This document shows, one piece after another, positions 8,146 to 33,777 of a stretch of 64,000 nucleotides of DNA. The DNA comes from Pseudomonadota bacterium (GTDB lineage: Bacteria > Desulfobacterota > Binatia > Binatales > Binataceae), in assembly GCA_021324455.1 (NCBI GenBank), contig JAJPJA010000100.1, positions 12,068-76,067 of the forward strand, read 5' to 3'. The position numbers were made by a program, and so were the translations under genes. Within the stretch, counting starts at the first letter, position 1. The number at the start of each line of letters is the position of its first letter. The notes under the pieces were generated by a model, which was not told the origin of the DNA, ran no database searches, and saw only the letters and a program-made list of their open reading frames with translations.

Positions 8146-9113
8146 AGGTAGGTCTGCACGGAGTGGTTCTTGATCAATTCCGTACTGACCCATCGTTTGA
8201 ACTGAATCTCCATCTGCTGTTGGGCCAGCTTGGCGCGAATGGCGTCGCGCACGTCGGCCAGCGGTTTGACGCCCGCTTCCTGATGTTCTTCCACCTTGAT
8301 GATATGAAAGCCGTGGCCGGTCTTGACCACTTCCGAGATCTGCCCGGACTTGAGCTTTGAAATGGCGGCCAGAATCCGGTCGTTGATCTCGTCGGGTTTG
8401 AAGTAGCCCAGTTCGCCGCCCTGGGTTTTGGAATCGTCGTCGGAGTACTGCGCCGCGAGCGCCGCGAAGTCCTCGCCCTTGAGCGCGCGCTTGCGCAGCT
8501 GTTCGGCCCTGGCCCGCGCCGCTTCAACCAGCATCGGCGGCGCCGTCGCGGGATCGACCGCAACCAGGATCTGCGCCAGCTTGAAGCGCTCCTCCGAGGA
8601 TGTGAAGTCGGCGATGTGCGCATGGTAATAGGCTTCGATCTGCGCCTGGGTGACGGTAATTTTGTCGCGCACCTGATGCTCCAGCAGCAGCATCTTCTGC
8701 ACTTCCTGGCGCGCCCGCTTGCGGTACTGCTCGTAGGTGATGCCGTGCTGGGCCAGTTCGTCGCGCAGCTGGGCGTCGGTGACGTGGTTGCCGGCTTCGA
8801 ACTGGGCGATGAAGCGGTCGACCTGGTCTTCGTCGACCGGGATCTGGCTCATCTCGTGATCCATCACCTTCTGATTGATGAGCTGATCGAGCACCTTGCG
8901 CTCGATTTGGAGGCTTTGCGGGCTGTCGTCGGTGGGCAGCGTGGTGCCCGAAGCGGAGGCGAAGCGGCGCAGGTCCTGCATCGTGATCGGATCGCCGTCA
9001 ACGGTGGCGACGATTTTATCGACAATCTGATCGGCGCCCGCCGGGGCGGGAAAAAAAGCCGGCAGCAGGAACAGGACCGCTGCGCCGATGCCAATACGCG
9101 CGTAATGCCTCAT
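8142..9113 (-). CDS. surA: Periplasmic chaperone / peptidyl-prolyl isomerase SurA
   Basis: ATG at 9113 (MRHYARIG...), signal peptide, SurA N-domain and C-terminal parvulin-like PPIase (…GGELGYFKPDEI…GFHIIKV…); 4 nt after mfd stop. Confidence 0.85.
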   Translation of the reverse strand: MRHYARIGIGAAVLFLLPAFFPAPAGADQIVDKIVATVDGDPITMQDLRRFASASGTTLPTDDSPQSLQIERKVLDQLINQKVMDHEMSQIPVDEDQVDRFIAQFEAGNHVTDAQLRDELAQHGITYEQYRKRARQEVQKMLLLEHQVRDKITVTQAQIEAYYHAHIADFTSSEERFKLAQILVAVDPATAPPMLVEAARARAEQLRKRALKGEDFAALAAQYSDDDSKTQGGELGYFKPDEINDRILAAISKLKSGQISEVVKTGHGFHIIKVEEHQEAGVKPLADVRDAIRAKLAQQQMEIQFKRWVSTELIKNHSVQTYL

Positions 9114-9117
9114 CGAA

Positions 9118-12100
9118 TCAGTTAGCGAGCTGACCTGCCGCCCGCCCCACCCGAGGCTCCACCTTTTCACACGCCGCCAACGCCTGCAAGACGGTGTCCA
9201 GTTCCTCGAACAACTCCTCGTAATTGCGGTTTTCGATTCGAACCGTCAGTTGCGCGTTGGGCGCCAGCCGCATCCGCGAGCGGTTGGCGTTGACCAGTTT
9301 GGTCAGCAGCGCCGGATCCATCGGCGCCTGCGGATGCACGCGGATTTGCAGGCTGTTGCCGCGCAGCACCGCGCTCATGAGCATCAACTCGCGCATCTGG
9401 CGCCGCACGTTCATCGCCGCCAACAAATTCTCAACCAGGGTGGGCACCGGACCGAAGCGGTCGCGCAGTTCGTCGCGCAAATCGTCGAAATCCTGCACCG
9501 ATTCCGCGCGCGCCATCCGCCGGTACAGGATCAGGCGCTCGCTTTCATCCGGCGCGTAGCTGTCGGGGATGTAGGCGGGGATGCCGAGCTGCAGCTCGGG
9601 CTCGAAGTCGGGCCGCTGCGGCTCGCCGCGCAGTTCGCGGATCGCCTGCTCCATCATCTCGGTGTACAGCTCGAAGCCGACCGCGGCGATATCGCCCGAC
9701 TGCTCGCGGCCGAGCAGGTTGCCTGCGCCGCGCAGCTCCAGGTCATGCATCGCGAGCTTGAAGCCGCCGCCGACCTCGACCAGCTCGCGCAGCACCTCGA
9801 TGCGCCGCTTGGCGTCGCGCGTGATCAGATGCTCGCCCGGCACCAGCAGATAGGCGTAGGCCTTTTGCCTGGAGCGTCCCACGCGGCCGCGCAACTGATA
9901 GAGCTGCGCCAGTCCGAAATGGTCCGCGCGATTGATGATAATCGTGTTGGCGTTGGGAATGTCCAGCCCCGACTCGATTATGGCCGAGCACACCAGCACG
10001 TTGACGCGCTTGCTGATGAAGTCGTGCATCACCACTTCCAGCTCGCGCTCCTCCATCTGCCCGTGCGCGATCGCGACCTTGGCCTCCGGCACCAGCGCGC
10101 GCAGATGACGCGCCATGTACTCGATGTTCTCGACCCGGTTATGCACAAAGAACACCTGGCCGTCGCGGTTGAGCTCGCGCAGGATCACCTCGCGGATGAG
10201 TCCGTCGTCGAAATGAGCGACGTAGGTATGAATCGCCTGGCGGTCCATCGGCGGGGTCTGGATGATCGAAAGATCGCGTATCCCGAGCATCGCCATGTGC
10301 AGCGTGCGCGGAATCGGCGTGCCGGTCATGGTCAGCACGTCGACCAGCTTGCGGAAGCGTTTGATCTTTTCCTTGTCGGCGACGCCGAAGCGATGCTCCT
10401 CGTCGATAATCAGCAGCCCCAGGCGCTTGAAATCGACGTCGTTCTGCAGCAGCCGATGGGTGCCGATGACGATATCGACCTTGCCCTCGCGCACCAGCTG
10501 CAGAATCGCCTTGTTGTCCCTGGGCGAACGGAAGCGCGAGACCATCTCGATCCGTACCGGGAAATCCTTGAAGCGCCCGGTAAAGTTCTCGAAATGCTGC
10601 TCGGCCAGAACCGTGGTCGGCACCAGCATCGCGACCTGGTACCCGTCGGCCACCGCGACCATCGCCGCGCGCAGCGCGACTTCGGTTTTGCCGAAGCCGG
10701 CGTCGCCGCAGATCAGCCGGTCCATCGGACGCGTCCTGGACATGTCGAGCAGCACCTGGTCGATGGCCGCCAACTGGTCCTCGGTCTCCTGGAATTCGAA
10801 GCGGTCGGCGAACTCTTCGTACATCGATCCGGGATGAGGAAAGGCGTGGCCTTCCTGCGCTTCGCGCGCCGCGTAGATTTCCAGCAGCTCCGACGCCATC
10901 GCCAGCACCGCCTCGCGCGCGCGTTTTTTGACCTTGTCCCACGAGCCGCTGCCGAGCTTGTCCAGCCTGGGCGTCACGCCGTCGCCGCCGACGTAGCGCT
11001 GAACCAGGTTGATGCGCTCCACCGGGACGTAGAGCGTGTCGTCGCCGAGGTATTCGAGATTGAGGAAATCGCCTTCGGCTTCGGCGACCTTCAGATGCTT
11101 GAGTCCGCGATAACGGCCGATGCCGTGGTCCAGATGCACCACGAAATCGCCCGGCTTGAGCTCCTCCAGGTTGACCAGCATCCCCTTGGCGGCGGGGCGG
11201 GTCCGCCGGCGCGTGCGCGGCTCGCCGAAGATGTCCTCTTCACTGTAGATGTACAGGCCGTCGAGCGGCAGCACGGTTCCGGCGCCCAGCTCGCCCTCCA
11301 GGATCGCGGGGTAGCCGGGCGGCGATTCCATCAGGCGGGGAAAGCTTTCCGCCTTGACGTTGATTTCGAAGCCGTAAGCCTCAAGATGGCGCCGCAGGCG
11401 ATTGCCCTGGCTGGGACCGTCGACCACGAAAATCGCGCGGCCCATCTGCCGGCGGATTTGCGTCAGCTCCTCGATCAGCGGTTCGAACGTCGGAGCTTTG
11501 GCGCCGTCCTTGCCGCCGGCGGTGAGCTTAAGGCTCGCCTGGGACTTGACTTCGATCGCAAGCGCGTGGCCGGTCTCCGGCGTGCGCAATGTCACCACCG
11601 AGCCGACCTCGACCGTAACCAGCTGCTCCAGGCGCGATTGCAGTTCGGCGGCGTCGAGGAACAGGCTTTCGGGAGGTGGAAAAAAGACGTGGCGCGCCAG
11701 ATTCTGCTCCGCCTCCTCGGCCACGTGATCGGCAAAGCGCTGGCTTTGCGCGAGGATGCGGCCGGGCTCGACCATCCATGTAAGCGCGTTTTGGGGCATG
11801 AAGTCGAAGATGGTCTGCAGCGGACAGTCGTACATGTAGGGCGTCAGGTTTTCGACCCCCGGAAAGAGCAAGCCGTTTTCCAGCGCTTCGGTCAGCTCGG
11901 CCACCTCCTTGCGCACCAGGCCGATCTCGGCCGCCCGCACCGCGACCTGATCGCGCAGCTTGCGATCGCGCAGCGCGCCCGGCGCCACGAACCGCGCCGG
12001 AATCACGATTGCTTCGAGCACTTCATCCAACGAGCGCTGGTCGGCCGGATCGAAGAAGCGAATCGAGGAGAGGATGTCGTCTTCCAGTTCAAGCCGCAGC

Positions 12101-16897: not shown

Positions 16898-17524
16898 CTA
16901 ACGGCGGCGGGTTCCGATCACCGCGAACACCGGGTCGGCATACGCGGTTTCGCACCGCCGCTCGATTGCTTCGATATCGTCGAATACGCCGCTGGCCGCG
17001 AAATATTCCCGCACCAACACCACCCGCTGCGATTCCGATGCCCGCTGCCAGACCCATACCGCCTTGGTCGGGAACATCCGGTTGGAAAAGCTCACCACCA
17101 ATGGCGCCCCGGGCCGCAGCACGCGTCCAATCTCGACGAAGACTTCCACCGGCTTTATCAGGTACTGGATCGACACCGTCAGCATCGCGCCGTCGAAGCT
17201 GGAGGCCTCAAAGGGCAGGCGCGGGTCGCGGTTGAGGTCATGCACGACTGCCTGGGTAAGCGCCGGATTGTCCTCCATCTCGGCGCGATTAAGTCCCAGT
17301 CCGGTGACCGACGCGGGCGCGAGCGAGGCCGGCAGGTGCGAGCGCCAACTGCTCATCAGGTCGAGCAGCGCGCCGCCGGGCGGCAGCTTTTGTTCGAAGA
17401 TCCGGCCGATAGCGGCGATCGCCCAATCGTCGATATGGACGACGAAGCGGGGAAAGCTGTAGAACAGCGCATCGTCGGTTTCGTCGATGCGGCGGAAAAA
17501 ATCCTCTGGCATCGGCTCTGCCAT
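16898..17524 (-). CDS. Class I SAM-dependent methyltransferase
   Basis: Methyltransf_11-like motifs (…ALLDLMSSW… GLGLN…; …RVLRPGAPLVVSF…). Confidence 0.75.
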   Translation of the reverse strand: MAEPMPEDFFRRIDETDDALFYSFPRFVVHIDDWAIAAIGRIFEQKLPPGGALLDLMSSWRSHLPASLAPASVTGLGLNRAEMEDNPALTQAVVHDLNRDPRLPFEASSFDGAMLTVSIQYLIKPVEVFVEIGRVLRPGAPLVVSFSNRMFPTKAVWVWQRASESQRVVLVREYFAASGVFDDIEAIERRCETAYADPVFAVIGTRRR

Positions 17525-19049: not shown

Positions 19050-20168
19050 ATGAAAATCCTCATCATAGGCGCCGGTATAATCGGCAATTCGATCGCGTGG
19101 CGGATGGCTCGCGCCGGCGCCGACGTTACTATCGTGGAGCGCGGCCGGGCCGGACAGGAGGCCTCGTGGGCCGCGGCCGGCATGATCGCGCCGCAGGCGG
19201 AAGCCGAAGGGCCGGGGCCCTTCCTGCGCTTTTGCGTCGAAGCCAAAAACGCCTTCGAGACGATTCTGCCCGAGCTGATCGCGCAAAGCGGCATCGATCC
19301 CGAGTATGACAAAGGCAGCGGCGTGCTGTATGTCGCGCTCAACGAGGCCGATCGCGCCGAACTGGCGGCGCGCGCCGCGTGGCAGCGCGAGGCCGGTTTG
19401 CAGGTCGAGGAAATCGGCGGCGAACGGGCGCGCCAAATCACTCCGGCGTTGTCGCCCAAAGTGATCCACGCGCTCTACATGCCCGACGAAAACCGCGTCG
19501 AAAACCGGCAGCTTACCCAGGCCTTTCTGATCGCGGCGCTGAAAGCCGGTGCGCGACTGATCGAGGACAGCCGCGTCGACGCGATCGAGACCCGCGGCGG
19601 CAGATTCTCCGGCCTGCGCCTGCAGGGCGGGGAACTGATCGAAGCAGACGCGGCGGTCAATGCCGCCGGATCATGGGCCAGTGTGATTCGCGGCACCGAA
19701 GCCGACCACGTCCGGCTGCATCCGGTGCGCGGCCAAATCGTATGTTTTCAGGCGCGGCCCAACCTGGTCGGTCCGTCGATCTTCTCTTTGCGCGGCTACG
19801 CCGTGCCGCGGCGCGACGGCCGTGTCCTGGCCGGATCGACGCGCGAGATGGCGCGCTGGAGCAAGGACGTGACGCTGGAGGGGATGGAGAGTATTGTGCG
19901 CGCCGCCAAAGACATGCTGCCGGCGCTGGCCACGATGCGTTTTCGCGAAGCGTGGGCGGGTCTGCGTCCGGCCACGGCGGATTTTCTGCCGGTATTGGGG
20001 CCCTCTCCGTCGATTCCCGGCCTGTATTACGCCACCGGCCATTTTCGCAGCGGAATCCTGCTGGCCGCGATTACCGGCCGCGTGCTGGAGGCGATGATTA
20101 CCGGAGGCAAGCCCTGCACCGACGTCACGCCATTTTCAGCGGCACGATTCATGCCCTCAGCAAAATAG
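19050..20168 (+). CDS. thiO: Glycine oxidase ThiO-like FAD-dependent oxidoreductase
   Basis: MKILIIGAGIIGNSIAW (FAD GxGxxG) and …SWAAAGMIAPQAEAEG… ThiO/DAO signature. Confidence 0.8.
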   Translation: MKILIIGAGIIGNSIAWRMARAGADVTIVERGRAGQEASWAAAGMIAPQAEAEGPGPFLRFCVEAKNAFETILPELIAQSGIDPEYDKGSGVLYVALNEADRAELAARAAWQREAGLQVEEIGGERARQITPALSPKVIHALYMPDENRVENRQLTQAFLIAALKAGARLIEDSRVDAIETRGGRFSGLRLQGGELIEADAAVNAAGSWASVIRGTEADHVRLHPVRGQIVCFQARPNLVGPSIFSLRGYAVPRRDGRVLAGSTREMARWSKDVTLEGMESIVRAAKDMLPALATMRFREAWAGLRPATADFLPVLGPSPSIPGLYYATGHFRSGILLAAITGRVLEAMITGGKPCTDVTPFSAARFMPSAK

Positions 20169-20176
20169 GACCAGCA

Positions 20177-20530
20177 ATGCGAGTACTTGGCCTCGTCAAA
20201 GACCTGATGTTCCGTTCCCGAATCGACGCCGTGTGCGAAGCGCTCGGCTTCGAAGTCGCCTATGTGTCGGTGCCCGCGCTGTTGGCCCAACGATGCGGCC
20301 AGACGCAGCCGTCGGTGGTTTTGGTGGATTTGTCGGAGCGCGCATTCGATCCTCAACAGACGATGAGCACGCTGCGCAGCTGCGCGGCAGGCGCGCAGAT
20401 CATAGGGTTCGCCTCGCACGTGGATCTGAAATCTCTGGACGGCGCCCGCCAGGCCGGCTTCACCCGCGTCCTGTCGCGCCAGGAATTCGCCGCCCAGCTT
20501 CCCTCGCTCCTGCGCACCGCCCGCGATTGA
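20177..20530 (+). CDS. Small receiver-like (CheY-fold-like) hypothetical protein, 117 aa
   Basis: ATG 9 nt after thiO stop; …VVLVDLSE… and …IIGFASHVD… resemble beta-alpha receiver strands but acidic pocket is incomplete. Confidence 0.4.
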   Translation: MRVLGLVKDLMFRSRIDAVCEALGFEVAYVSVPALLAQRCGQTQPSVVLVDLSERAFDPQQTMSTLRSCAAGAQIIGFASHVDLKSLDGARQAGFTRVLSRQEFAAQLPSLLRTARD

Positions 20531-20593
20531 CTCTCCCGGTCTGATCCGTCTGCTGAATTCCCCCGGCAGTCCGCGTTTCGGCGGCGAGGAAAT

Positions 20594-23500
20594 TCATCCC
20601 GGCACACGATGCGCGGCTGCCCGGGACCGGGCGCGGGCCGGGACCGGACCGGGCAGGCCGTCGTAGCGCAGGCTGCGGCCGTCGGAATGAAACCGCATCG
20701 CGGCCAATTCGCTGACGCGCGCGGAGCTGAGCGCCGGCTCGCCGTCGACGGTATCCAGTCTGAGCCGCGGCCGCAGTTTCAGGAGGGCGGTGACTGCGGC
20801 GCTGAAGCGCGTGGAATCCATCTCCCGCAGGCAGATCAAATCGCGTCCCGCCAGGCCCATTATCGGCCCTCCGCCCGCGATTACGATTACGTTGGAGGGC
20901 TCGCGCGCGATACCGCATCCGGGCAGCGCCGCGCCGAACGGATTGGCAGGGTCGATCGCGCTGAGCGCGGCGAGATGGTCCGGCGCCGCCGTCCGCGCCG
21001 CGCGCAGCATCTCGACCGCCTGCGGCAGCGCATACTGCTCGCCCGATAAGGAACGCACGAAGTAGCCGCGCCGGATGGTGCCGGCGTACTCCAGACGCCG
21101 CAAGGCAAACAGCAGATCCGACCAGTTGACGCCCTCCTCGGCCGCCATTACCTCGCGCGTCAGGACGCCGTGGCGGCGCAGCAGCGTCATCGCCAGTTCA
21201 CGTTCCCGCTCCACCCCGGGCTGAGTCTGAAGGCCGCCGCCGATCGCGACCCAGCGGCCGCCCAGGCTGGATTTGAGCCGCGCGCGCAAACCGGCGTCGT
21301 AGCGGCTCAGCTTGCGATCGGGTGTGGAAGCCAAAGCCGCGGACGGATCGGGAATGCCGGCCAGCAGCCGCAGCGGAGCAAAGCCGTCGTTGGTGGACAA
21401 GCCGGCGGCGGCCAGGCTCCACAACGTGCGCAGAACGTCGCGATCCGAAAGACCGGCGCGCTGCGCGATCTGATCCAGGTAAAGCGCACCGCCTTCACGC
21501 AGGATTTTCAGTACAAGTTGTTCTTTGACGTCATCCGGAGCGGGGGCCTCGTTGCCCGATCCGATCCAACCCTGTGCGCGCGGCATAAACGCGACGCGAG
21601 AAGGAATCTCGGCGCTCCCATCGCGGCGCGGCCCCGCCATCCACATTATCCGTCCGCTCAGACACAGCAGGTCGAGATATTCGGGGCGGTAATCCGGAAT
21701 GCGGGCGGGAAGGATCGCGCGTTCCCACAACTCCGTATCCAGCGCCAAACCGCTCAGCTGCTCCAGCACGGCGGCGGCGCCATCGGCGCCCGGCGGCAAA
21801 TCCGCGCCGCCAATATGATGCCATCGGAGCAGGAAAGCGGTGTACTCGCGATCCTCGCAGGGCTCGACCTCGGCGCGAATCTTTTCCAGGGTCAGGCGAT
21901 GGATGCGTTCCAAGTTGTAGCGGTCGCACCAGCTCTCGCCGGCGTCGACGAAGCGGCCGCGGAATACGGCGCCCTTTGCTTCCAGCGCAGCCAGGCAGCT
22001 CTCCGTCTGCGCCTGGCCAAACCCCAGCCGCGCGGCGACTGCGGACGCCGTGACCGGGCCCGAGGTGCGCAGCATACGCCGCACCAGTTCCAGGCGGGCG
22101 GCGCCGGCCTCCGGCGCGCTCTCGGTTGGCGCCGCAATCGCGGAGGAGGTCGAGGCGCCGGAATAAACGGCGTGAAACAGCGCGGCGTCCTCCGCCGCGA
22201 TCCACAGCGGGTTGTGCCGATGAGGCAGACGGATAGAGACGATGCGCGAAGTATCGGCGAGCATGCGGGTAAGTGCGGCGCCGGCGGCCGCACGCTGCGC
22301 GATTTCGTCTTCTTCCAGCGCGCCGTGCGATCGGATCAATTCATACAGTTCGTCGGCGTCGCGCGCCCTGCGTCCGCCCGCGATACCGGAGGCTTCGGCG
22401 GCGACCCGCGCGACAGCCTCGCGCGCCAGCATCTCCGAGACATCCTCGCTGCGCAGGACATCTTCGGCCATCCCGCGATTCATCGAGACCGAGCGGCTGC
22501 GCCGGTTGGCGCGCTCGCCGTCATCGAGGAAGGAATAATCCCACGCCAGCAGCAGGCGCTGGGCGAACACCGAGGGCGCTATGGAATCGACCGCGATCGT
22601 CCGCACGCGGCCGCGCTCGATTCCCTCGATCAGCGCGGTCAGCCGTTTGATGTCGGCGGATTCCTCAAGGCATTCGCGGATGGTTTCCTGAACGATAAAG
22701 TGCTCCGGTATCTCGACCTGCGGCGGCTTGTTGTCGAAGCAGGCCTGCTGCTGGGGGAACAGCGCAATCGTCAGGTCCTGCGAGCGCAGGCGCTGGATCC
22801 AAGCCGGCACTTTGCGCCCCCTGGAATTGCGCATCACGCTCAGCGCGCGCGTGGCCACGTGGCGAAAGCGCACCTCAAACATCGGCGCCGCCAGCACGGC
22901 CTGGGTCAGGCTGTCGCGCAGCGTGCGTGAATTCAGAAAGCTGAACACTTCTTCGAGCGCAAAGCTATGGCGCGAATTCAAGGCCAGCAGCACGCCGTCG
23001 TCGGTGGCTGACGCCTGGATCTCAAAATTGAACGACTGGCAAAGGCGCTTGCGCAGTGCCAGTCCGAAACCGCGGTTGAGCCGGATGCCGAGCGGCGAAT
23101 GCAGCACGATCTGGGTGCCGCCCAGACCGTCGAAGAAACGCTCGGCGACAATCGTGCGGTGGTCGGGAATCGCGCCCAGGGCGTTCAATCCGCGCCGCAC
23201 GTAATCGACCGCCTGCGCCGCCGCGGAAGGTTCGATCGCGCATTGGTCGACCAGAAATCGAGCGGCCGTGCCGGGGTCGGAGAGCCGCCGCGCGATCTCG
23301 CGGCGCAAATCATTGACCTCCTGCGACAGCGCCGGCGTGCGGCCCGCCGCCTCCGCCATCCAGAACGGCAGCGTCGGTGCCATCCCGGGCGCCGGTTCGA
23401 CCATCAGGCGGCCGCGCGAAATGCGCTGGATCTGCCACGGCATCGAGCCCAAAGCGAAAATATCGCCGCGCGAGGACTCCTGGGCGAAGTCTTCCTCGAC

Positions 23501-25084
23501 ATCGCCGATCTTGCGCTGCTGCGATTCGATCACGACGTCGTAGTTGCCGGCTTCAGGAATCGTTCCGCCCGAGGTGATAGCGGCCAACCTTGCGCCCCGG
23601 CGCGGCCTGATCCTGCCGCCGATGCGATCGTAAAAGATTTTGGGAGACGCGCCCTGGATCCGCTGGGGCAACTCCGCCGCCATCTGGTCGAGCAGGCGGC
23701 GGAGTTCGGGCGCGTCAAGCGCGGCGAAATTGTACGCTCCGCGCAGCGTGCGCAGAATTTCGGCTTCGGTGATCTCGCCCTCTTCCGCCGCCATCGCCAC
23801 GATCTGTTGGGCGGCGACGTCCATACATCCGCTGGGAATCTCCACCTGGTCCAGCCGCGCGCTGCCAATCGCGCGCACCGCCGCGCCGCATTCGATCAGG
23901 TCGTCCAGCGTCATCGCGAAAAAGCGCCCCTTGGGCGTCTGTCCCAGCGCGTGGCCGGAGCGGCCGATGCGCTGAATGGCGGCCGAGATCGATTTGGGCG
24001 AATCGATCTGGCAGACCAGATCGACCGCGCCGACGTCGATCCCCAGTTCCAGCGACGCGGTGGCGACGATCGCGCGCAGCTCTCCGCGTTTAAGCCGCTG
24101 CTCCGCCGCCAGACGCTCGGCGCGGGCAAGGCTGCCGTGATGCGCCATCACGGCGTCCGCGCCCACACGCTTCTGCAGCGCCAAAGCGACCCGCTCGGCC
24201 CATCGGCGGCTCAACGTGAAGACCAGCGTTGTGCGATGCTGCCCGATCAGTTCCGCGATCCGATCGTAAGTCGCTTCCCAATGCGAATGAGTCGCGAGCG
24301 GGCCCAATTCGGGTCCGGGAGCGAGCACCTGCAGGTCAAGCTCGCGCGGTCCGTCGCCGGCGCGGACGATGCGGCATGGCCGTTGGGTCCGCTCGCCGCC
24401 GCCCTCGACTTCGGCGCCGGTGAGAAAGCGGCCCAGCTCCTCGATCGGGCTGAGCGTGGCGGAGAGGCCGATGCGCGCCGGGCGGACGCCGGTGCGCGAT
24501 TTGACCATCCTCTCCAAACGCTCCAAAGTAACGGCAAGGTGCGCGCCGCGCTTGTTGCCGGCCAGCGCATGCAGCTCGTCGACGATCACCCATCGCACCG
24601 CCTGCAGCTTTTCGCGGAAGCGGCTCGTGGTCAGCAGGATGAACAGCGACTCGGGTGTGGTGACCAGAATATGCGGCGGCCGCCGCAGCATCGCGCTGCG
24701 CTCGGCCGCGGGCGTATCTCCCGTACGCAGGCCGGCGCGAATGGGTGCCAGGGCGATTGCGGCCGCGCAGGCGGCCGCGCGCACTCCGCCCAGCGGCTCC
24801 TCGAGGTTGAGTCTGATGTCGTTGGCGAGGGCCTTCAGCGGCGAGACATAGAGTACGGAAACCTGATCGGGAAGTACGCCGGATTGCGCTTCGACCACCA
24901 GCTGGTTTATCGACCACAGAAAAGCGGCCAAAGTTTTGCCGCTGCCGGTCGGCGCGCACAGCAAAACATCGTGGCCGCCGCCGATCAGGGGCCATCCGGC
25001 TTCCTGGATAGCCGCCGCGCGGCCGAAGCGGCCCTCAAACCAGGCGCGCACGATCGGATGAAATACGGATACCGCGGCACTCAC
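20594..25084 (-). CDS. lhr: Large ATP-dependent helicase Lhr (SF2 DEAD/DEAH, 1496 aa)
   Basis: Walker A LLCAPTGSGKTLAAF, DEAD-like VIVDELHAL, helicase C and extended Lhr-core plus long C-terminal extension. Confidence 0.9.
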   Translation of the reverse strand: MSAAVSVFHPIVRAWFEGRFGRAAAIQEAGWPLIGGGHDVLLCAPTGSGKTLAAFLWSINQLVVEAQSGVLPDQVSVLYVSPLKALANDIRLNLEEPLGGVRAAACAAAIALAPIRAGLRTGDTPAAERSAMLRRPPHILVTTPESLFILLTTSRFREKLQAVRWVIVDELHALAGNKRGAHLAVTLERLERMVKSRTGVRPARIGLSATLSPIEELGRFLTGAEVEGGGERTQRPCRIVRAGDGPRELDLQVLAPGPELGPLATHSHWEATYDRIAELIGQHRTTLVFTLSRRWAERVALALQKRVGADAVMAHHGSLARAERLAAEQRLKRGELRAIVATASLELGIDVGAVDLVCQIDSPKSISAAIQRIGRSGHALGQTPKGRFFAMTLDDLIECGAAVRAIGSARLDQVEIPSGCMDVAAQQIVAMAAEEGEITEAEILRTLRGAYNFAALDAPELRRLLDQMAAELPQRIQGASPKIFYDRIGGRIRPRRGARLAAITSGGTIPEAGNYDVVIESQQRKIGDVEEDFAQESSRGDIFALGSMPWQIQRISRGRLMVEPAPGMAPTLPFWMAEAAGRTPALSQEVNDLRREIARRLSDPGTAARFLVDQCAIEPSAAAQAVDYVRRGLNALGAIPDHRTIVAERFFDGLGGTQIVLHSPLGIRLNRGFGLALRKRLCQSFNFEIQASATDDGVLLALNSRHSFALEEVFSFLNSRTLRDSLTQAVLAAPMFEVRFRHVATRALSVMRNSRGRKVPAWIQRLRSQDLTIALFPQQQACFDNKPPQVEIPEHFIVQETIRECLEESADIKRLTALIEGIERGRVRTIAVDSIAPSVFAQRLLLAWDYSFLDDGERANRRSRSVSMNRGMAEDVLRSEDVSEMLAREAVARVAAEASGIAGGRRARDADELYELIRSHGALEEDEIAQRAAAGAALTRMLADTSRIVSIRLPHRHNPLWIAAEDAALFHAVYSGASTSSAIAAPTESAPEAGAARLELVRRMLRTSGPVTASAVAARLGFGQAQTESCLAALEAKGAVFRGRFVDAGESWCDRYNLERIHRLTLEKIRAEVEPCEDREYTAFLLRWHHIGGADLPPGADGAAAVLEQLSGLALDTELWERAILPARIPDYRPEYLDLLCLSGRIMWMAGPRRDGSAEIPSRVAFMPRAQGWIGSGNEAPAPDDVKEQLVLKILREGGALYLDQIAQRAGLSDRDVLRTLWSLAAAGLSTNDGFAPLRLLAGIPDPSAALASTPDRKLSRYDAGLRARLKSSLGGRWVAIGGGLQTQPGVERERELAMTLLRRHGVLTREVMAAEEGVNWSDLLFALRRLEYAGTIRRGYFVRSLSGEQYALPQAVEMLRAARTAAPDHLAALSAIDPANPFGAALPGCGIAREPSNVIVIAGGGPIMGLAGRDLICLREMDSTRFSAAVTALLKLRPRLRLDTVDGEPALSSARVSELAAMRFHSDGRSLRYDGLPGPVPARARSRAAAHRVPG

Positions 25085-25156
25085 GTTATTGTTATATCAC
25101 GGCCGCGCCTTGCGTTTGAGGCAGACCGCGCGGAGCTTGAGTCCGGCCCTGTCTGC

Positions 25157-26293
25157 ATGTGGATGAAAAAAAACGCGGCGTATGGCTCGCGCCGCCGCGC
25201 GGCGGCTAAGCTCAACACTGCTTTGAGAATTTCGCCGACAGTGCTGGCAGCCGGCGCCGCCGCGGCGTTGGCGTTGATTGCGTGGCGCGCGCCGATGGCG
25301 CTGGCCGCGGCGCCGCTTTCTCTGGGCCAGCAGGACGAGCTGCTCCGTCCGCCGCTGAAGGACGGCCAGCCGATTCCGGTTGCGATTGCGATCCACGTAA
25401 TCAATCTGACCGACATCGATGAGGTCCTGCAGCGCTTCCATGTGATGTTCTACCTGTTTGTGCAATGGCAGGACTCGCGTCTGGCCTTTACGCCGAGTCG
25501 GCCGGGCGAGCGGTTTCATGTTTATGCCGTCGATCAGGTGTGGCATCCGCGGCTGGATTTCATCAATGCGGTTGGCGCGCGCAGTGCGGGCGAATCGTCG
25601 CTGCGGGTGGAGCCCGGCGGAACGGTGCTTTACGCGGAACGCGGCGAGGCGCAGTTGAGCACGCGCTTCCATCTGCGGCGCTTTCCCTTTGACCGCCAGG
25701 CGCTGCAGATCATTGTGCATCCGTTCGTGGCGCAGTCCCATCTGCTCGCCTTCCGCGCCAGCCAGGAACATACCTGGTTGAGCGCCGAACAGACGGTGTA
25801 TTCCTCGCTGGCGGATTGGGACCTGGTCGGCATCCGGACCGAGCACGACCATATCTCGCTGTCCAAAGTGGGCGAGATCCCCGAAGCGCATTTCGAGATC
25901 TTGGTGCGGCGCAAGTACGCTTTTTATCTGTGGAAGATTTTTCTCCCGCTCCTGCTGATGGTGATACTGTCGTGGACCGTGTACTGGATCGATACCAGGG
26001 ATTTGAGCAGCCAGGTTCAAATCTCCATTACCACCATCCTGACCGTAATCGCGTTCGCGTTTTCGATCTCGCTCAGTCTGCCCAAGGTGCCCTACCTGAC
26101 CTTCATCGACGCGTTTTTCCTGGATTGTCTGGTGTTCGTGTTTTTCACCGCGATCGAGATGACCACGGTGCACGTGACCGGACGAACCCGGCGGGCCGCG
26201 TTTGGGGTGAAGATCCGGCGCGTCAGCAGGGTCGCGGTGCCGATTGCGTTCGTCGCCAGCAATCTGATTATCGCGGTTTATTATTTCGGCTGA
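25157..26293 (+). CDS. Prokaryotic pentameric ligand-gated ion channel (pLGIC / Cys-loop receptor family homologue)
   Basis: Signal peptide, ~200-aa beta-rich extracellular domain, then M1 (YLWKIFLPLLLMVILSWTVYWI), M2 pore helix (SQVQISITTILTVIAFAFSISLSLP), M3, very short M3-M4 loop and M4 (VAVPIAFVASNLIIAVYYFG); this is the real 3' part of the long 23099..26293 ORF. Confidence 0.8.
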   Translation: MWMKKNAAYGSRRRAAAKLNTALRISPTVLAAGAAAALALIAWRAPMALAAAPLSLGQQDELLRPPLKDGQPIPVAIAIHVINLTDIDEVLQRFHVMFYLFVQWQDSRLAFTPSRPGERFHVYAVDQVWHPRLDFINAVGARSAGESSLRVEPGGTVLYAERGEAQLSTRFHLRRFPFDRQALQIIVHPFVAQSHLLAFRASQEHTWLSAEQTVYSSLADWDLVGIRTEHDHISLSKVGEIPEAHFEILVRRKYAFYLWKIFLPLLLMVILSWTVYWIDTRDLSSQVQISITTILTVIAFAFSISLSLPKVPYLTFIDAFFLDCLVFVFFTAIEMTTVHVTGRTRRAAFGVKIRRVSRVAVPIAFVASNLIIAVYYFG

Positions 26294-26437
26294 GCCGGGC
26301 GGCGCAGCGCGGCGGGATTTCCGGTGCCGCCGGCATTTCATTGTTGAACCGCGATCGGGCTGATAATTTCTAATCAAGCTCAGCCGCTTTCGAGCACACC
26401 AGGCCCGGCGCTGGTACGGCGGCCGTTACTTTGACGC

Positions 26438-29400
26438 ATGCTGATGAATTCTGCTGCGAACAGCGGCCGCGCCGCGCCGACCGGCTACGCATCCGGCGAG
26501 CCGCCCGGCGGCGAGATGTCGATCCGCATGCGCGAGTTCGACTGGTCCACCACGCCGCTGGGTCCGATGCATACATGGTCGCCGGCGCTGGCAACCACGC
26601 TGCGGATTGTATTGGCGAACCGGTTTCCACACATACTGTGGTGGGGGCCCCGATACATACAGCTTTACAACGACGCCTATATTCCCTATCCGGGCGCCAA
26701 GCATCCGCATCAGGCGCTGGGGCGTCCGGCCGCCGAATGCTGGTCCGAGATCTGGCACATTATCGGGCCGCCGATCGATAAGCCCTTTCGCGGCGGGCCG
26801 GCCGCGTGGGACGACGATATCTGCCTGGTGATACACCGGCACGGCTTCGCCGAAGAAACCCACTTCACCATCGCCTACAGTCCGGTGCCCGACGAAACCG
26901 CACCGGGCGGAATCGGCGGCGTGCTCGGCACCGTTTATGAAATCACGGAAAAGGTCGTGGGCGAGCGGCGCGTTGTGGCGCTGCGCGACCTGAGCGCGCG
27001 GGTCGGCGACGCCAAGACCGCCGAAGAGGCCTGTGCGATCGCGGCGGCCACCTTGTCGGCGCACAACAAGGACCTTCCTTTCGTTCTGCTCTACCTGCTC
27101 GATGCCGATGAGAAGCGCGCGCGGCTGGCTGGCGCGGCCGGTGCCGCAGCCGGCGATGACCTCAGTCCGGCGCAGCTCGACCTCGAAAATCAGGCGCGGG
27201 GATGGCCTTTGGCCCAGGCGGCGCGAACCGCATCCATGCAGGTGGTTGAGAATCTCGACGCCAGATTTCGACAGCTACCGCCGGGACCGTGGCCGGATCC
27301 GCCGCATACCGCCGTGGTCGTACCGATTCCATCCAACAAGCCGCATGAGACCGCGGGTTTCATGATTGCCGGGGTAAGCTCGCGTCTGCGGCTGGACCAG
27401 TATTACCGCGATTTCTTCAACCTGGTGCGGACCCAGGTGGCGACCGCGATCGCCAACGCGCGCGCCTACGAAGAGGAACGCCAGCGGGCCGAGGCCCTGG
27501 CCGAACTGGACCGCGCCAAGACGCTGTTTTTCAGCAACGTCAGCCACGAGTTTCGCACCCCGCTCACCCTGATGCTCGGACCGATCGAAGATATCCTATC
27601 CGAAGACGGCGAGCTGTCGGCGGATAACCGCCAGCGGCTGCAGGTCGCGCATCGCAATTCGCTGCGCCTGCTGAAGCTGGTCAACACCCTGCTGGACTTT
27701 TCGCGCATCGAGGCCGGCCGCATCCAGGCCTCGTATGAGGCGGTGGATCTGTCCGAGCTGACGGCGGAGCTGGCCAGCGTCTTCCGATCCGCAATCGAGC
27801 GGGCGGGCCTGCGGCTGACTGTCCGCTGCCAACCGTTGTCCGAGCCGGTGTATGTGGATCGGGAGATGTGGGAGAAGATTGTATTCAATCTGATCTCGAA
27901 CGCGTTCAAGTTCACCTTCGAAGGCGGGATTGAAATATCTCTGCGGCAGGCGGGCCGGGCCGTTGCGCTGTCGGTGCGGGATACCGGGACCGGTATTCCG
28001 GCATCCGAGGTCCCCCACATTTTCGAACGCTTTCACCGCGTCAGCAACGCCCATGGACGCACGTTCGAAGGCAGCGGCATCGGCCTGGCGCTGGTGCAGG
28101 AGCTGGTCAAACTTCACGGCGGCAGCGTGGCGGTGGAAAGCGAGCCGGGGGCCGGCAGCACCTTTACCGTGCGGATCCCGCTGGGCTGCGGTCATTTACC
28201 GGCCGACCGGATTGCGGCGCCGCGCACGCTCGCCTCCACCGGCTTGCGCGCCGAAGCCTATCTTCAGGAAGTGCTGGGATGGCTGGCGGACGCCCCGGCC
28301 GCGCGCACGGCACAAATCGAGGCGATGCCGCCGGCCGATGACGCGCAGCCGGAGCACAAGGCGCCGCGCGGCTCCCGTCCGCTCATACTTCTGGCCGACG
28401 ACAACGCCGACATGCGTTACTACGTCGAGCAGCTTCTAAAGGAGCGCTGCGAGGTCCGCGCCGCCGCCGACGGACGGGCGGCCTTGCGCGCCGCCCGCGA
28501 GCATCCTCCCGACCTGGTGCTGGCCGACGTGATGATGCCCGAACTGGACGGCTTCGCGCTGCTGCGGGAAATGCGCCGCGATCCGGTACTGAAGACTGTG
28601 CCGGTAATCGTCCTGTCGGCGCGGGCAGGGGAGGAGGCGCGGGTTGAAGGACTGGAAGCGGGCGCCGACGATTACCTGATCAAGCCGTTCAGCGCACGGG
28701 AGCTGCTTGCCCGCGTCGGCGCGCATCTGGAGATGGGGCGGGTGCGCCGTGATGCGGCCCGCATGGAGCGGGAACTTCGAGCCGAAGCGCAAGCCGCCAG
28801 GGATCAGCTCGAAGGAGTCCTGGCCGCAATCACCGATCAGTTTCTGGCCTGCGACAGCGGCTGGCGATGTGTTTACGCCAACAATCGCGTCACCGAATTT
28901 ACCGGGCTTGCCCGGAATCAACTGTTGGGCCACAAACTCTGGGACATCTTTCCCGCAGTCGCCGGCACAGAGTTCGAACGTCAACTGCGCCGGGCGATGG
29001 CGGAGCGCAAGCCCACGCGGTTTGAATTCTATTTCCCGCCGCGCAAGCGATGGTTCGAAAACCACGTCTATCCTTCCAGTTCCGGCTTGACCCTCCTTTC
29101 GGCGGATATTACCGATCGCAAACGGGTGGAGGAGCGGCTGCGCGAAGCGGACCGCCAGAAGGACGAATTTCTCGCGATGCTGGCCCATGAACTGCGCAAT
29201 CCGCTGGCCGCGCTGTCCGCCGCCAACGAACTGCTGTTGCGCATCGTTCCGCCGCAGCCTTCCACTCAGGCCGCGCTGGCGATGGTCAAGCGTCAGGTGG
29301 GGCACCTTTCACGCCTCATTGACGATCTGCTCGACGTGTCCAGAATCACGCTGGGACGGATCGAACTGCGTCCGGCGCCGGTCAGTATCCAGAGCGTGCT

Positions 29401-30271
29401 GGTGCAAGCCATCGAAACCGCGCAGCCCTGGATCGATCGGCGCGGGCACCAGCTTGTTGTGGATGCCGGCAACGGGGACCGGCTTTGGGTAAAGGCGGAC
29501 CCCTCGCGACTGGTGCAATGCCTGACCAACCTGATCAACAACGCGGCGAAATACACGCCCAGCGGCGGCCGGATTGCCGTGCTGGTTGCCGAGGACGGCA
29601 ACCAGGTGAAAATCCAGGTCGAGGATAACGGTATCGGAATAGCGCCGGAGTTCCTGCCCTACGTGTTTGACCTGTTTTCGCAAAGCCAGCGCTCGCTCGA
29701 CCGCACCCAGAGCGGCCTCGGCATCGGACTGACTTTAGTCAAGCGCCTGATCGATCTTCACGGCGGAAAGGTCGAAGCCGCCAGCGCTGGCCTCTGGCGC
29801 GGCGCCACCTTTACGATATATCTGCCCAAAATTGAACCGCAGCAGACGCAGGATATCTGCAAAAATATGCCTTCAGCCAAAGCGGGCACCAAACGCGTGC
29901 TCATCGTGGACGATAACCGGGATGCCGCCGATGCGCTGTCGGAGCTTCTGATCCTGGAAGGGCATGAAGCGCAGTCCGTATACGGCGCGTTGGCCGCAAT
30001 CGACAAGGCGGCGCAGATTTGTCCGGACGCCGTCCTGCTCGATATCGGGCTGCCGCAGATAGACGGCTACGAACTTGCGCGGATGCTGCATGAGGTGCCC
30101 GCATTAAAGAACGTTACTCTGATCGCGGTCACCGGCTATGGCCAGGCCAGAGACAAAGAGTCGGATCGGGCCCGGGTATTCGATCATTATCTGGTAAAGC
30201 CGGTGGACCTCGACAAGTTGTCTGAAATACTGGCCTCACTGCCGCCAAAAGGCGGCGAACCAGAAAATTGA
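26438..30271 (+). CDS. Cytoplasmic tandem hybrid sensor kinase: PAS-GAF-HisKA/HATPase-REC-PAS-HisKA/HATPase-REC (1277 aa)
   Basis: Two H-boxes (SHEFRTPL; AHELRNPL), two HATPase_c G-boxes (DTGTGIP; DNGIGIA), two receiver domains with phospho-Asp (LVLADVMMPELDG; VLLDIGLPQIDG); no TM segments. Confidence 0.9.
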   Translation: MLMNSAANSGRAAPTGYASGEPPGGEMSIRMREFDWSTTPLGPMHTWSPALATTLRIVLANRFPHILWWGPRYIQLYNDAYIPYPGAKHPHQALGRPAAECWSEIWHIIGPPIDKPFRGGPAAWDDDICLVIHRHGFAEETHFTIAYSPVPDETAPGGIGGVLGTVYEITEKVVGERRVVALRDLSARVGDAKTAEEACAIAAATLSAHNKDLPFVLLYLLDADEKRARLAGAAGAAAGDDLSPAQLDLENQARGWPLAQAARTASMQVVENLDARFRQLPPGPWPDPPHTAVVVPIPSNKPHETAGFMIAGVSSRLRLDQYYRDFFNLVRTQVATAIANARAYEEERQRAEALAELDRAKTLFFSNVSHEFRTPLTLMLGPIEDILSEDGELSADNRQRLQVAHRNSLRLLKLVNTLLDFSRIEAGRIQASYEAVDLSELTAELASVFRSAIERAGLRLTVRCQPLSEPVYVDREMWEKIVFNLISNAFKFTFEGGIEISLRQAGRAVALSVRDTGTGIPASEVPHIFERFHRVSNAHGRTFEGSGIGLALVQELVKLHGGSVAVESEPGAGSTFTVRIPLGCGHLPADRIAAPRTLASTGLRAEAYLQEVLGWLADAPAARTAQIEAMPPADDAQPEHKAPRGSRPLILLADDNADMRYYVEQLLKERCEVRAAADGRAALRAAREHPPDLVLADVMMPELDGFALLREMRRDPVLKTVPVIVLSARAGEEARVEGLEAGADDYLIKPFSARELLARVGAHLEMGRVRRDAARMERELRAEAQAARDQLEGVLAAITDQFLACDSGWRCVYANNRVTEFTGLARNQLLGHKLWDIFPAVAGTEFERQLRRAMAERKPTRFEFYFPPRKRWFENHVYPSSSGLTLLSADITDRKRVEERLREADRQKDEFLAMLAHELRNPLAALSAANELLLRIVPPQPSTQAALAMVKRQVGHLSRLIDDLLDVSRITLGRIELRPAPVSIQSVLVQAIETAQPWIDRRGHQLVVDAGNGDRLWVKADPSRLVQCLTNLINNAAKYTPSGGRIAVLVAEDGNQVKIQVEDNGIGIAPEFLPYVFDLFSQSQRSLDRTQSGLGIGLTLVKRLIDLHGGKVEAASAGLWRGATFTIYLPKIEPQQTQDICKNMPSAKAGTKRVLIVDDNRDAADALSELLILEGHEAQSVYGALAAIDKAAQICPDAVLLDIGLPQIDGYELARMLHEVPALKNVTLIAVTGYGQARDKESDRARVFDHYLVKPVDLDKLSEILASLPPKGGEPEN

Positions 30272-31752: not shown

Positions 31753-32099
31753 TAGGACGAAATCGCGTTTAATGTCATTGAACGCGGAAAAGCGCCTGGC
31801 GCGCATCGCCAAGCTTCCGGGCCGCCCCTGGGCGATCTCAAGGCTCAAGCGGCCCCGTATCACCCGTTTCGCGAGAGCGTTGGTCAACTCATGCGCCAAC
31901 AGCGCCGCCGCGCTTACCTCTTGCTCGATGCACTTGAGTGCGAGGTTCGCATCGACGACCCCTTTGTCCACACTCGCGGACTGGCTATCAGGTCGGCGGA
32001 GTCCTCAGGGAAACGCTTTGCTTGCTTTGCGCGGAAGCCCGCGAAGCGGCGAGCCGTATCTGTGGTGATGGCGCCATCGACCTTTTTCTTAAGCGCATA

Positions 32100-32970
32100 C
32101 TCCGACGGAAGCCGACGCCACCAACTCGCTCCGCTTTACTCCGAAGGGGCTTCTTCTGAGGCAAGGGAATTTGTTTTTCAGGGAAAGAAATACGCTCCAC
32201 GAGGGGATACTCATTGGAAAACAACTTTTAAGGGCCTCGAGAACCTCGCGAATGCGAACCGAATTGAAGTAATGGGCTCTGTCATGCGCTATCGTCGGTT
32301 CGTGCAGGACTTCCCTGTCATCGCGATCACCGACCAATGGGAATCAACCCAAATCGGCACGCAACACATATACGCTGTGCAGACGTCTCCGATTGTTGTC
32401 AGACGCGGCATGCTTATGACCACGGACCCGGGCGATCTCGTGCTCGACCCGACCTGCGGCAGTGGAACCACGGCCTACGTGGCCGAGCAATGGAGACGGC
32501 GCTGGATCACAACCGATGTTTCACGCGTGCCGCTGGCGCTTGGGCGCCAGCGCCTGCTCACCGCGACGTTTCCATACTATCAACTTAAAGACGAGGCGCG
32601 CGGCCCGGCGGGGGCTTCGTTTACAAGCGCAAGCAGAACGCCAAGGGCGAGGAGGTCGGCGGCATCGTGCCGCATATTACCCTTGAATCGATCGCCAACG
32701 ACCAGCCGCCCAGGGGAAGAAATTCTCGTTGACCGCCCCGGGGTCGTGAGCGGAATCACTCGCGTGACCGGCCTGTTCGTGGTCGAAGCGACCGATGGAT
32801 TTCGAGGCGGCCGAACGCGACGGCGGCGGCGGAGCCGCGTCAGGCGAGAATTACGCCTCGTTCACCGAAGCGGATGCTCGAAGTGCTGCGCAAGTCACCG
32901 GTGCTCCATGTCGGCGGCGGCAAAGCGGTCAATCTCAAGAACATCCACCCGCCCGCCGCGGCAACGAATT
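32100..32970 (+). pseudogene. Frameshifted, N-terminally truncated N6-adenine/N4-cytosine DNA methyltransferase remnant
   Basis: …LVLDPTCGSGTTAYVAEQWRRRWITTD… (motif I of the beta-class/ParB-type MTases) and downstream …ITLESIANDQPP…, …ITRVTGLFVVEA… pieces lie in three different frames; no DPPY motif found upstream; region is lower GC than flanks. Confidence 0.6.
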
Positions 32971-32985
32971 GATGGTGGTCAAGGA
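32956..32985. repeat. Imperfect 30-bp direct repeat, copy 1 (ccgcggcaacgaattgatggtggtcaagga)
   Basis: 26/30 identical to copy 2 at 33879..33908; lies 32 nt upstream of the MNT start. Confidence 0.8.
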
Positions 32986-33016
32986 CCTGAGAGATTTGCG
33001 AAAATAAGCGCGGGGA

Positions 33017-33373
33017 ATGGCTATGACGGAGCAAACCGACGGCGACCTGATTGCGCGTGACGCGAAGCTGGCGGAGATCGTGCGACGGTTGGCCGACGCC
33101 TACCATCCCCTTGCGATTTACCTGTTCGGCTCGAAAGCGCGCGGCGACGCCGGCCCTGATAGCGACTATGACCTGCTGCTGGTCGTGCCTGACGACGCCC
33201 CGGCGGAGCGGCGGCGCAGCCGGCTCGCGTACGAGACTCTGTGGCGTTGCGGGACAACGGGCGCGGTCGACGCCTTGGTCTGCACGCAGTCCTACTTCGA
33301 CGCCCGGCGCCATCTTAAAGCGTCGTTGCCCGGAACCGTCCTGCGCGAGGGAAAACTGCTCTATGCCGCATGA
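33017..33373 (+). CDS. Minimal nucleotidyltransferase (MNT) antitoxin-type protein
   Basis: LFGSKARGDAGPDSDYDLLLVV = GSx9-10DxD polymerase-beta-like NTase motif; 118 aa. Confidence 0.8.
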   Translation: MAMTEQTDGDLIARDAKLAEIVRRLADAYHPLAIYLFGSKARGDAGPDSDYDLLLVVPDDAPAERRRSRLAYETLWRCGTTGAVDALVCTQSYFDARRHLKASLPGTVLREGKLLYAA

Positions 33374-33777
33374 CCCGGCACGAGTCGCGGACACAGCGGC
33401 CTGGCTGCGGAAGGCAGACGAAGACCTCGCTATCGCGAAGGAATTGTTGAAGCCTTTAAAAGCTCTTTGCGGCGGCGCGGTGTTTCACTGCCAGCAGGCC
33501 GCCGAGAAGGCGTTGAAAGCGTTCCTGGTCTGGTACGATGTGCCTTTCCGCAAGACCCATGACCTGAGAGAGCTGGGCAATGCTTGCATCAGGATCGAGG
33601 CAACTCTGAAAGAAGCGATTGCCGGCGCGATTCCACTTACTGAGTACGCATGGAGGTTTCGATAATCCGGGCGAGCCGGCGCAGCCCACAAAGCGTGAGG
33701 CGCGGGCCGCGTTGGCGGCCGCGCGTAATCTTTACAGCGCGGTCGTGTCGCGCCTGCCGGACGACGTCAAGCCGTAA
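33363..33777 (+). pseudogene. HEPN domain toxin-type gene, interrupted by a 1-nt frameshift/premature TAA at 33663-33665
   Basis: Starts 11 nt before the MNT stop; frame 0 gives …KTHDLRELG…EYAWRFR*; the +1 frame continues (D)NPGEPAQPTKREARAALAAARNLYSAVVSRLPDDVKP*, which completes a typical HEPN C-terminus (…aRYPg…eea…). Removing one A of 'cgataatcc' restores F-R-Y-P-G-E-P. Confidence 0.6.

Follow-up and report, generated by a model that had tools for sequence, protein, structure and literature searches.

Sequence anatomy of a soluble double hybrid histidine kinase with a widespread sensor-kinase-receiver cassette

Introduction

CheS3 of Rhodospirillum centenum has the domain order REC-REC-PAS-HK (REC, receiver; HK, histidine kinase), and its receiver, which lies N-terminal to the PAS-HisKA-HATPase core, is phosphorylated by the kinase CheA3 and governs the output of the PAS-kinase (PMC3868531). 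The element described here is a double hybrid histidine kinase of 1277 amino acids (aa), encoded in a stretch of 64,000 nucleotides from a member of the Binataceae (contig JAJPJA010000100.1), and the whole of this stretch is referred to as the window. Like CheS3, the window protein has a receiver (REC1) ahead of a PAS-HisKA-HATPase core, and this receiver would likewise be phosphorylated by another kinase and govern the output. Compared by domain layout, the two systems differ in that CheA3 is a separate protein, whereas the upstream kinase of the window protein (HK1) is fused in cis; by analogy, the window protein may work as a receiver-regulated kinase of the CheS3 type with its upstream kinase in the same chain. 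We propose, with a probability of roughly 0.55, that it is a cytoplasmic orphan signalling protein in which a complete two-component system is fused to a second hybrid kinase. It is considered an orphan because a tblastn search of the window detected no further kinase or receiver and because the genes flanking it have no relation to signalling.

Other described systems resemble the window protein in part. The dual histidine kinases of fungi, such as Tco2 of Cryptococcus neoformans, have two HK and two REC per polypeptide and are reported to be restricted to Basidiomycota (PMC4965123). The likeness is one of architecture only. The bacterial context excludes membership in that clade, the sensor domains differ by their description, and there is no sign of a common origin. 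The bacteriophytochromes DrBphP and PsBphP share with the window protein the order of PAS and then GAF ahead of a HisKA kinase, and their PAS-GAF fragments are the best fold matches of its N-terminal 351 aa; the window protein, however, has no PHY domain, no Pfam match to PAS_2 or PHY, and no match to a sequence in the PDB. ArcB, BarA, TorS and RcsC also contain HisKA-HATPase-REC units, but they are membrane-bound and have one kinase core and a histidine phosphotransfer (Hpt) domain, whereas the window protein, which is soluble, combines two cores and lacks an Hpt domain. A comparison of the whole protein with NCBIfam gave only partial matches (TorS, LvrA, ArcB and others), all well under the cut-offs. 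Literature searches for bacterial dual or tandem histidine kinases and for the actinomycete fusion described below yielded no paper on this kinase family; of the systems found in this way, only the fungal dual kinases and CheS3 are usable as analogues.

Results

The gene is translated without interruption from an ATG start, and ten elements can be distinguished in its product. Structures were predicted with AlphaFold2 (AF2).

26438-30271, plus strand: whole gene of the double hybrid histidine kinase, 1277 aa (list of open reading frames, Pfam)
26525-26947, plus strand: N-terminal PAS-like sensor, aa ~30-170 (PAS fold in the AF2 model, Foldseek matches to phytochrome PAS-GAF)
27005-27472, plus strand: GAF domain, aa ~190-345 (Pfam GAF_2, aa 212-339, E=4e-7; AF2 model)
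27515-27718, plus strand: first HisKA or dimerization and histidine phosphotransfer (DHp) domain, with the phospho-acceptor H370 (Pfam HisKA, aa 360-427, E=8.5e-17)
27863-28183, plus strand: first HATPase_c, with N, G1, F and G2 boxes intact (Pfam, aa 476-582, E=7.7e-29)
28385-28717, plus strand: REC1 (Pfam Response_reg, aa 650-760, E=3.9e-29)
28718-28828, plus strand: helical linker from REC1 to PAS2 (AF2 model of aa 646-985)
28829-29125, plus strand: internal PAS domain, PAS2 (Pfam PAS_4, aa 798-896, E=8e-17)
29156-29350, plus strand: second HisKA/DHp domain, with H917, on the helix that exits PAS2 (Pfam HisKA, aa 907-971, E=4e-17)
29498-29830, plus strand: second HATPase_c (Pfam, aa 1021-1131, E=3e-26)
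29897-30232, plus strand: REC2, the terminal receiver (Pfam Response_reg, aa 1154-1265, E=5.5e-17)

The E-values of the kinase and receiver domains (1e-17 to 1e-29) are far beyond the curated cut-offs of Pfam. A preliminary description of this DNA had given the same domain order, with HK/REC modules present twice, and the Pfam annotation matches it. Its first PAS domain appears as a PAS fold in the AF2 model, but the N-terminal PAS half gave no significant Pfam match (PAS_4, E=0.064). The protein had also been described as having no transmembrane segment. The highest Kyte-Doolittle mean over 19 residues is 1.26, as compared with 2.08 for the neighbouring channel protein, and the kinase therefore has no membrane helix. 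Domain annotation did not find an Hpt domain in the protein.

The conservation of the protein was read from an alignment (A1) of 47 full-length homologues (51-72% identity over 97-99% of the length), in which a column was counted as conserved at a level of at least 90%. The motifs of module 1 are SHEFRTPL (H370), the N-box at 484, DTGTG at 515 and GSGIGL at 545, followed in REC1 by DD654/655, D697, S727, Y746 and K749. The corresponding motifs of module 2 are AHELRNPL (H917), the N-box at 1031, DNGIG at 1063 and GLGIGL at 1093, followed in REC2 by DD1158/1159, D1202, T1232 and K1254. H370 and H917 are each present in 47 of 47 homologues. Equally invariant are N488, D515/G517/G519 and G545/G547/G549 of HATPase 1 and N1035, D1063/G1065/G1067 and G1093/G1095/G1097 of HATPase 2. 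In both modules, the residues for phosphorylation and for the binding of ATP are thus invariant throughout except for D1158, which opens the acidic pair of REC2 and is Asp in 45 homologues and Glu in 2. Judged by these motifs, module 1 and module 2 are both HisKA-type (class I) sensor histidine kinases, and the complete receiver that lies C-terminal to each kinase core makes the protein a hybrid histidine kinase by sequence, with phosphotransfer predicted. Because the catalytic residues are invariant, both modules are judged to be under purifying selection. The preliminary description was therefore correct in stating that both H-boxes, both G-boxes and both receiver Asp residues are intact, and neither module proved degenerate, an outcome that it had considered.

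The homologues also bear on the age of the architecture. A database search yielded thousands of relatives, and among the best 120 approximately 45 were collinear with the query over 96-99% of its length, with 51-72% identity and lengths of 1233-1321 aa; these include proteins from Trinickia symbiotica, Cupriavidus sp. CV2, Steroidobacteraceae, Gemmataceae and metagenome-assembled genomes (MAGs) of Verrucomicrobiae. Collinear homologues (~1250-1320 aa) with the same ten-element domain order occur in several phyla. The double-kinase architecture is thus judged from these alignments to be old and maintained by selection, and the window protein is placed as an orthologue or paralogue in a widespread PAS-GAF-HK-REC-PAS-HK-REC family. 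BLASTP gives an identity of only 29% between the two HK-REC halves (32% over the cores), which is below the level of a recent duplication. The term "tandemly duplicated", used in the preliminary description, does not hold in the sense of a recent event, which is rejected on account of this low identity and of the age and wide distribution of the architecture. The window protein shows no substantive difference from its family homologues. The sole local peculiarity is the β5 switch residue of REC2 (aa 1251, nucleotides 30188-30190), which is Tyr here and His in the other 46 of the 47. Many relatives of ~2000 aa from Myxococcota are among the top scores of the protein search. In Corallococcus sicarius (locus L064), a single open reading frame (ORF) of ~2007 aa, from ~6620, contains the sensor-HK-REC-HK unit twice in tandem.

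A scan of loci, restricted to one genome per species, gave 80 loci from Acidobacteriota, Planctomycetota, Cyanobacteria, Myxococcota, Burkholderiales, Bacteroidota, Chloroflexota, Actinomycetota and others. The sensor, HK1 and REC1 were present in 80 of 80, with identities to the window protein of 46-76% for HK1 and 47-73% for REC1. What follows REC1 is variable. Among 77 complete ORFs, a second HK together with a REC was detected in 22, a second HK with no blast-detectable REC in 28, and a tail that blast with the kinase and receiver pieces of the window protein did not recognise in 25. Ten of the unrecognised tails were scanned with Pfam. Six of the ten, all at actinomycete loci (L054, L059, L071, L077, L081 and L083), have the order PAS-(GAF)-SpoIIE/PP2C-HATPase_c_2, to which a STAS domain is added in L083; we take this fusion to be a partner-switching module reminiscent of Rv1364c. 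Two others (Caballeronia and Hyphomicrobium) carry a diverged GAF/PAS-HisKA-HATPase-REC tail, one (a Mycobacterium MAG) carries PAS only, and one (L044, a Candidatus Sulfotelmatobacter MAG, 8020-11766) carries PAS-Sigma54_activat-HTH_8. In L044, kinase, receiver and enhancer-binding protein are united in one chain. Because the first three elements are constant and the tail after REC1 varies, the conserved entity is the sensor-HK1-REC1 cassette, and HK2-REC2 is one of several outputs that can take the C-terminal position.

All of these tails occupy the position of an output domain, that is, after the receiver, as in response regulators, and for this reason REC1 looks like the regulatory receiver of a fused response regulator. 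The segment that leaves REC1, KPFSARELLARV...RLRR, is kept in fusions to kinases, to phosphatases and to a sigma-54 ATPase alike, and in the Cystobacter locus L048 it runs directly into the H-box of the DHp domain with no intervening PAS. In the AF2 model of aa 646-985 (predicted local distance difference test score, pLDDT, 86), α5 of REC1 extends into PAS2 as one 45-residue helix, aa 753-797 (H108-152 in the numbering of the model). The preliminary description had placed a coiled-coil at this position; in the prediction it is a single helix. PAS2 is left by a second 45-residue helix, aa 892-936, which bears H917. In this predicted structure, then, the receiver is N-terminal to the PAS-DHp unit and joined to it by a continuous helix, the arrangement that characterizes a receiver-regulated kinase.

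The best conserved region of the protein is the N-terminal PAS-like domain, in which 50% of the columns are conserved, and the α4-β5-α5 face of REC1 is second to the sensor only. In this face 69% of the columns are conserved, as compared with 26% in REC2, the conservation of which is lower than that of REC1 as a whole. The β5 switch Tyr of REC1 (Y746) is present in 47 of 47 homologues. A conserved Tyr at this position is a mark of allosteric terminal receivers, unlike phosphorelay intermediates (PMC9981736). The invariant Tyr, the conserved α4-β5-α5 face, the constant junction and the helix of the model agree in suggesting that REC1 acts allosterically, whereas REC2 is probably a phosphorelay-type receiver.

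The N-terminal sensor was modelled from 15 homologues (aa 1-351, pLDDT 83) as a PAS-like domain followed by GAF. The best fold matches in the PDB are PAS-GAF fragments of bacteriophytochromes (Foldseek E~1e-9 to 1e-10), with a TM-score of ~0.35, a root-mean-square deviation of ~16 Å and ~13% identity. No NCBIfam family was found for the N-terminal module, and its sequence gave one chance match against the PDB (ACE, E=0.76). C101 in the PAS-like domain and C199 in the helix preceding GAF are each present in 46 of 47 homologues. The sensor is rich in Trp, with nine conserved residues (seven invariant and two in at least 90% of the homologues), and the motifs FDWSxTPLGP, WWGP, YNDAY and IAYSPVPDE are all present in the window protein. 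With the sensor profile alone, 7,854 representatives of 50%-identity clusters, among 1.84 billion, were found at E<=1e-30, and in the matched proteins the sensor is almost always at the N-terminus. The protein was rejected as a bacteriophytochrome for want of PAS_2/PHY matches in Pfam and of a PDB sequence match, and in view of the TM-score. C101 and C199 presumably lie off the known bilin-attachment positions.

Discussion

Two-tier signalling of some form within the one protein is likely, and the following sequence of events can be proposed. The PAS-like/GAF sensor would control HK1, which would autophosphorylate at H370 and then phosphorylate REC1 at D697. Phosphorylated REC1 might then act, by way of its α4-β5-α5 face and the α5 helix, through PAS2 on the DHp helix of HK2, so that HK2 is toggled between kinase and phosphatase states; PAS2 may contribute a second, lineage-specific input. 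HK2 would autophosphorylate H917 from ATP and load D1202 of REC2, which would feed a putative unlinked Hpt protein and a response regulator encoded elsewhere. We infer the allosteric control of HK2 by REC1 from the swappable outputs and the conserved signalling face of REC1, and the direction of phosphoryl flow and the downstream partners are likewise put forward as the probable arrangement.

Several points weigh against this proposal. Architecture alone cannot fix the direction of phosphoryl flow, and REC1 might just as well serve as a phosphate sink or be a second donor in a phosphorelay to an Hpt protein. Only 6% of the columns in the linker and 2% of those in PAS2 are conserved, as would be expected of a passive or lineage-specific connector no less than of a transmission element. 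For aa 646-985, AF2 modelled a monomer with a predicted TM-score of only 0.50, so that the relative positions of its domains are uncertain. Finally, read-through transcription into the kinase gene from the upstream channel gene, which is described below, is possible.

One alternative is that the protein consists of two parallel sensor-kinase units, one running from PAS/GAF to HK1-REC1 and the other from PAS2 to HK2-REC2. The two would operate independently as an OR or AND gate and feed shared or separate Hpt proteins through both receivers, and REC1 would not control HK2. Each kinase core does have its own PAS-type domain before it and its own complete receiver after it, all residues are intact in both modules, and PAS2 is variable between lineages, as ligand-binding domains often are. 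However, the cassette is also fused to PP2C/anti-sigma and to sigma-54 AAA+-HTH tails, where REC1 is plausible only as a regulatory receiver. Furthermore, in 28 of the 77 complete ORFs blast detected a second kinase but no second receiver, L048 joins REC1 to DHp by a helix with no PAS between them, and the signalling face and Tyr switch of REC1 are strongly conserved. We regard parallel units as rather unlikely, although they fare best among the alternatives.

A second alternative is a straight relay, H370 to D697 to H917 to D1202, in which the second DHp domain would serve as a phosphotransferase of the Spo0B/ChpT kind. The order His-Asp-His-Asp along the chain and the lack of an Hpt domain in the protein would suit this arrangement. 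In Spo0B and ChpT, the ATP-binding domains are degenerate. HATPase 2 instead has N, G1 and G2 boxes that are intact and invariant in the 47 homologues. This implies selection for ATP binding, argues against a transferase of that type for module 2, and favours autophosphorylation of HK2 from ATP over a simple relay of a phosphoryl group. In addition, a long rigid helix is predicted to lead from REC1 into PAS2-DHp2, an arrangement in which D697 would not obviously come within reach of H917 in cis. The straight relay is thus very unlikely, and of the internal phosphorelay that had been suggested in the preliminary description, it is the two-tier signalling that stands and the simple H1-D1-H2-D2 chain that does not.

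Returning to the proposed fusion of a complete two-component system with a second hybrid kinase, the question is what the cassette senses. One could envision that the sensor represents a very large family that binds a cofactor or chromophore, and is redox- or light-sensitive, and that with HK1-REC1 it forms a portable, plug-in two-component input, which evolution would have fused to kinases, to PP2C/anti-sigma partner-switching modules and to sigma-54 activators. The near-invariant C101 and C199, the invariant Trp residues, and phytochrome PAS-GAF as nearest structural neighbour prompt this reading, which we nevertheless consider quite doubtful. The cassette is very common and soluble, carries no name in Pfam or NCBIfam, and matches no solved structure at the sequence level; identification of the ligand of the sensor would annotate thousands of proteins at once. 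Moreover, a cassette with such varied outputs is a natural system in which to study how one receiver drives unrelated effectors through a conserved helical junction.

Genomic neighbourhood

The gene upstream of the kinase encodes a pentameric ligand-gated ion channel (pLGIC), and the following features of the region are relevant to it.

16904-17524, minus strand: methyltransferase gene (MT208), on the side of the Lhr 3′ end
19095-20150, plus strand: DAO gene, on the side of the Lhr 3′ end
20177-20518, plus strand: small gene, a 113-aa ORF (the "117-aa gene" of relatives), abutting the Lhr 3′ end side
20594-25084, minus strand: Lhr-type helicase, 1496 aa (Pfam DEAD, DEAD_assoc and WH_Lhr)
25157-26293, plus strand: pLGIC, 378 aa (start 25157 or 25163; Pfam Neur_chan_LBD and Neur_chan_memb)
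26294-26437, plus strand: channel-kinase spacer, 144 bp (similarity to relatives ends here; inversion breakpoint)

The upstream gene lies on the same strand, and its two Pfam domains confirm that it is a true pLGIC, as had been described. A longer ORF of 1064 aa (23099-26293, plus strand) is an artefact rather than one gene, because its first ~686 codons are an antisense shadow of Lhr that runs in frame into the real 378-aa pLGIC. The named relatives of the channel (~50% identity) are mostly from Candidatus Binataceae.

The preliminary description had raised the possibility that channel and kinase form a signalling pair. In such a pair, the two genes would be co-transcribed and the kinase might, for example, sense ion flux or ligand occupancy. 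Signalling from a prokaryotic pLGIC to a dedicated kinase would have given this lead its importance, and some features of the locus are consistent with it. The genes lie on the same strand with only the 144-bp spacer between them, and in this spacer we found one weak hairpin of 5-6 bp, with counts no higher than in shuffled sequences, no match to a sigma-70 promoter, and RNA folding no better than in shuffles (z=+0.74). A terminator or independent promoter had been named as evidence against the pair together with a lack of conserved synteny; in the spacer, which includes an AT-rich stretch around 26335-26375, neither a convincing terminator nor a sigma-70 promoter was detected.

The lack of synteny, on the other hand, was evident from both sides. 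A tblastn search with the channel found no pLGIC at any of 83 loci of the kinase family (flanks of up to 10 kb). These include the kinase orthologues L001-L003 (67-72% identity), which lie beside cobalamin-salvage genes or beside an AsnC regulator and glutamate synthase. Conversely, none of the 11 loci with pLGIC orthologues (L004-L007 and L088-L094, 62-80% identity) contains kinase or receiver sequence. The orthologous channels are flanked by other conserved genes. Lhr adjoins the channel on the opposite strand in 8 of 8 loci that reach upstream of it, as well as in the window, and the order in the relatives, taken as ancestral, is Lhr (minus), pLGIC (plus), a convergent gene of 114-117 aa (minus), DAO (minus), a 446-aa gene and the methyltransferase. 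The 114-117-aa gene follows the channel, directly or past a short insert, in 10 of the 11 loci; a MazE/PIN insert comes after the channel in L005 and L006, whereas L007 differs in having an amidohydrolase there. DAO is next in every orthologue contig that extends far enough. The pairing of Lhr and pLGIC may reflect no more than shared ancestry within a narrow clade.

In the window, the methyltransferase, 446-aa, DAO and 117-aa genes are found on the opposite side, abutting the 3′ end of Lhr. This flipped order indicates that the Lhr-pLGIC block has been inverted, and DNA similarity to L004, L005 and L007 stops at the pLGIC stop codon. Inverted repeats were sought at the presumed boundaries (20516-20593 and 26294-26437), and none was convincing. 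As judged from these comparisons, the channel and kinase genes meet at a rearrangement breakpoint that only this lineage has, and their adjacency is a by-product of the inversion, without demonstrated functional meaning. Read-through from channel to kinase would be a consequence of the inversion, and co-transcription alone would not show functional coupling. With an adjacency that is conserved at none of the loci examined, a junction that coincides with a breakpoint, and a soluble kinase that has no membrane anchor with which to meet the channel, a functional pair is extremely improbable. The double kinase is common, and it is the surprising coupling to a channel that the comparative data largely refute, thereby removing a tempting but false lead.

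Some further observations were made in the window. The 113-aa ORF next to Lhr has a weak, sub-cut-off match to Response_reg over its full length (E=0.008), and it looks like a pseudo-receiver, since it has neither the acidic pair nor the Lys-Pro; its homologues lie beside DAO in the relatives, convergent with pLGIC. It was rejected as a partner of the kinase on account of these missing residues and of its conservation in relatives that have no kinase. Scanning the complete window for Rfam families and tRNA genes gave no matches. Downstream of the kinase is a cytochrome P450 gene (30538-31752), followed at 31891-33665 (plus strand) by two ORFs that overlap by 10 nucleotides. The first (389 aa) gives a partial match to N6_N4 DNA methylase, and the second (204 aa) carries a HEPN domain at its C-terminus. 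Lying two genes beyond the kinase, they may form a pair that acts in defence or resembles a toxin-antitoxin system.

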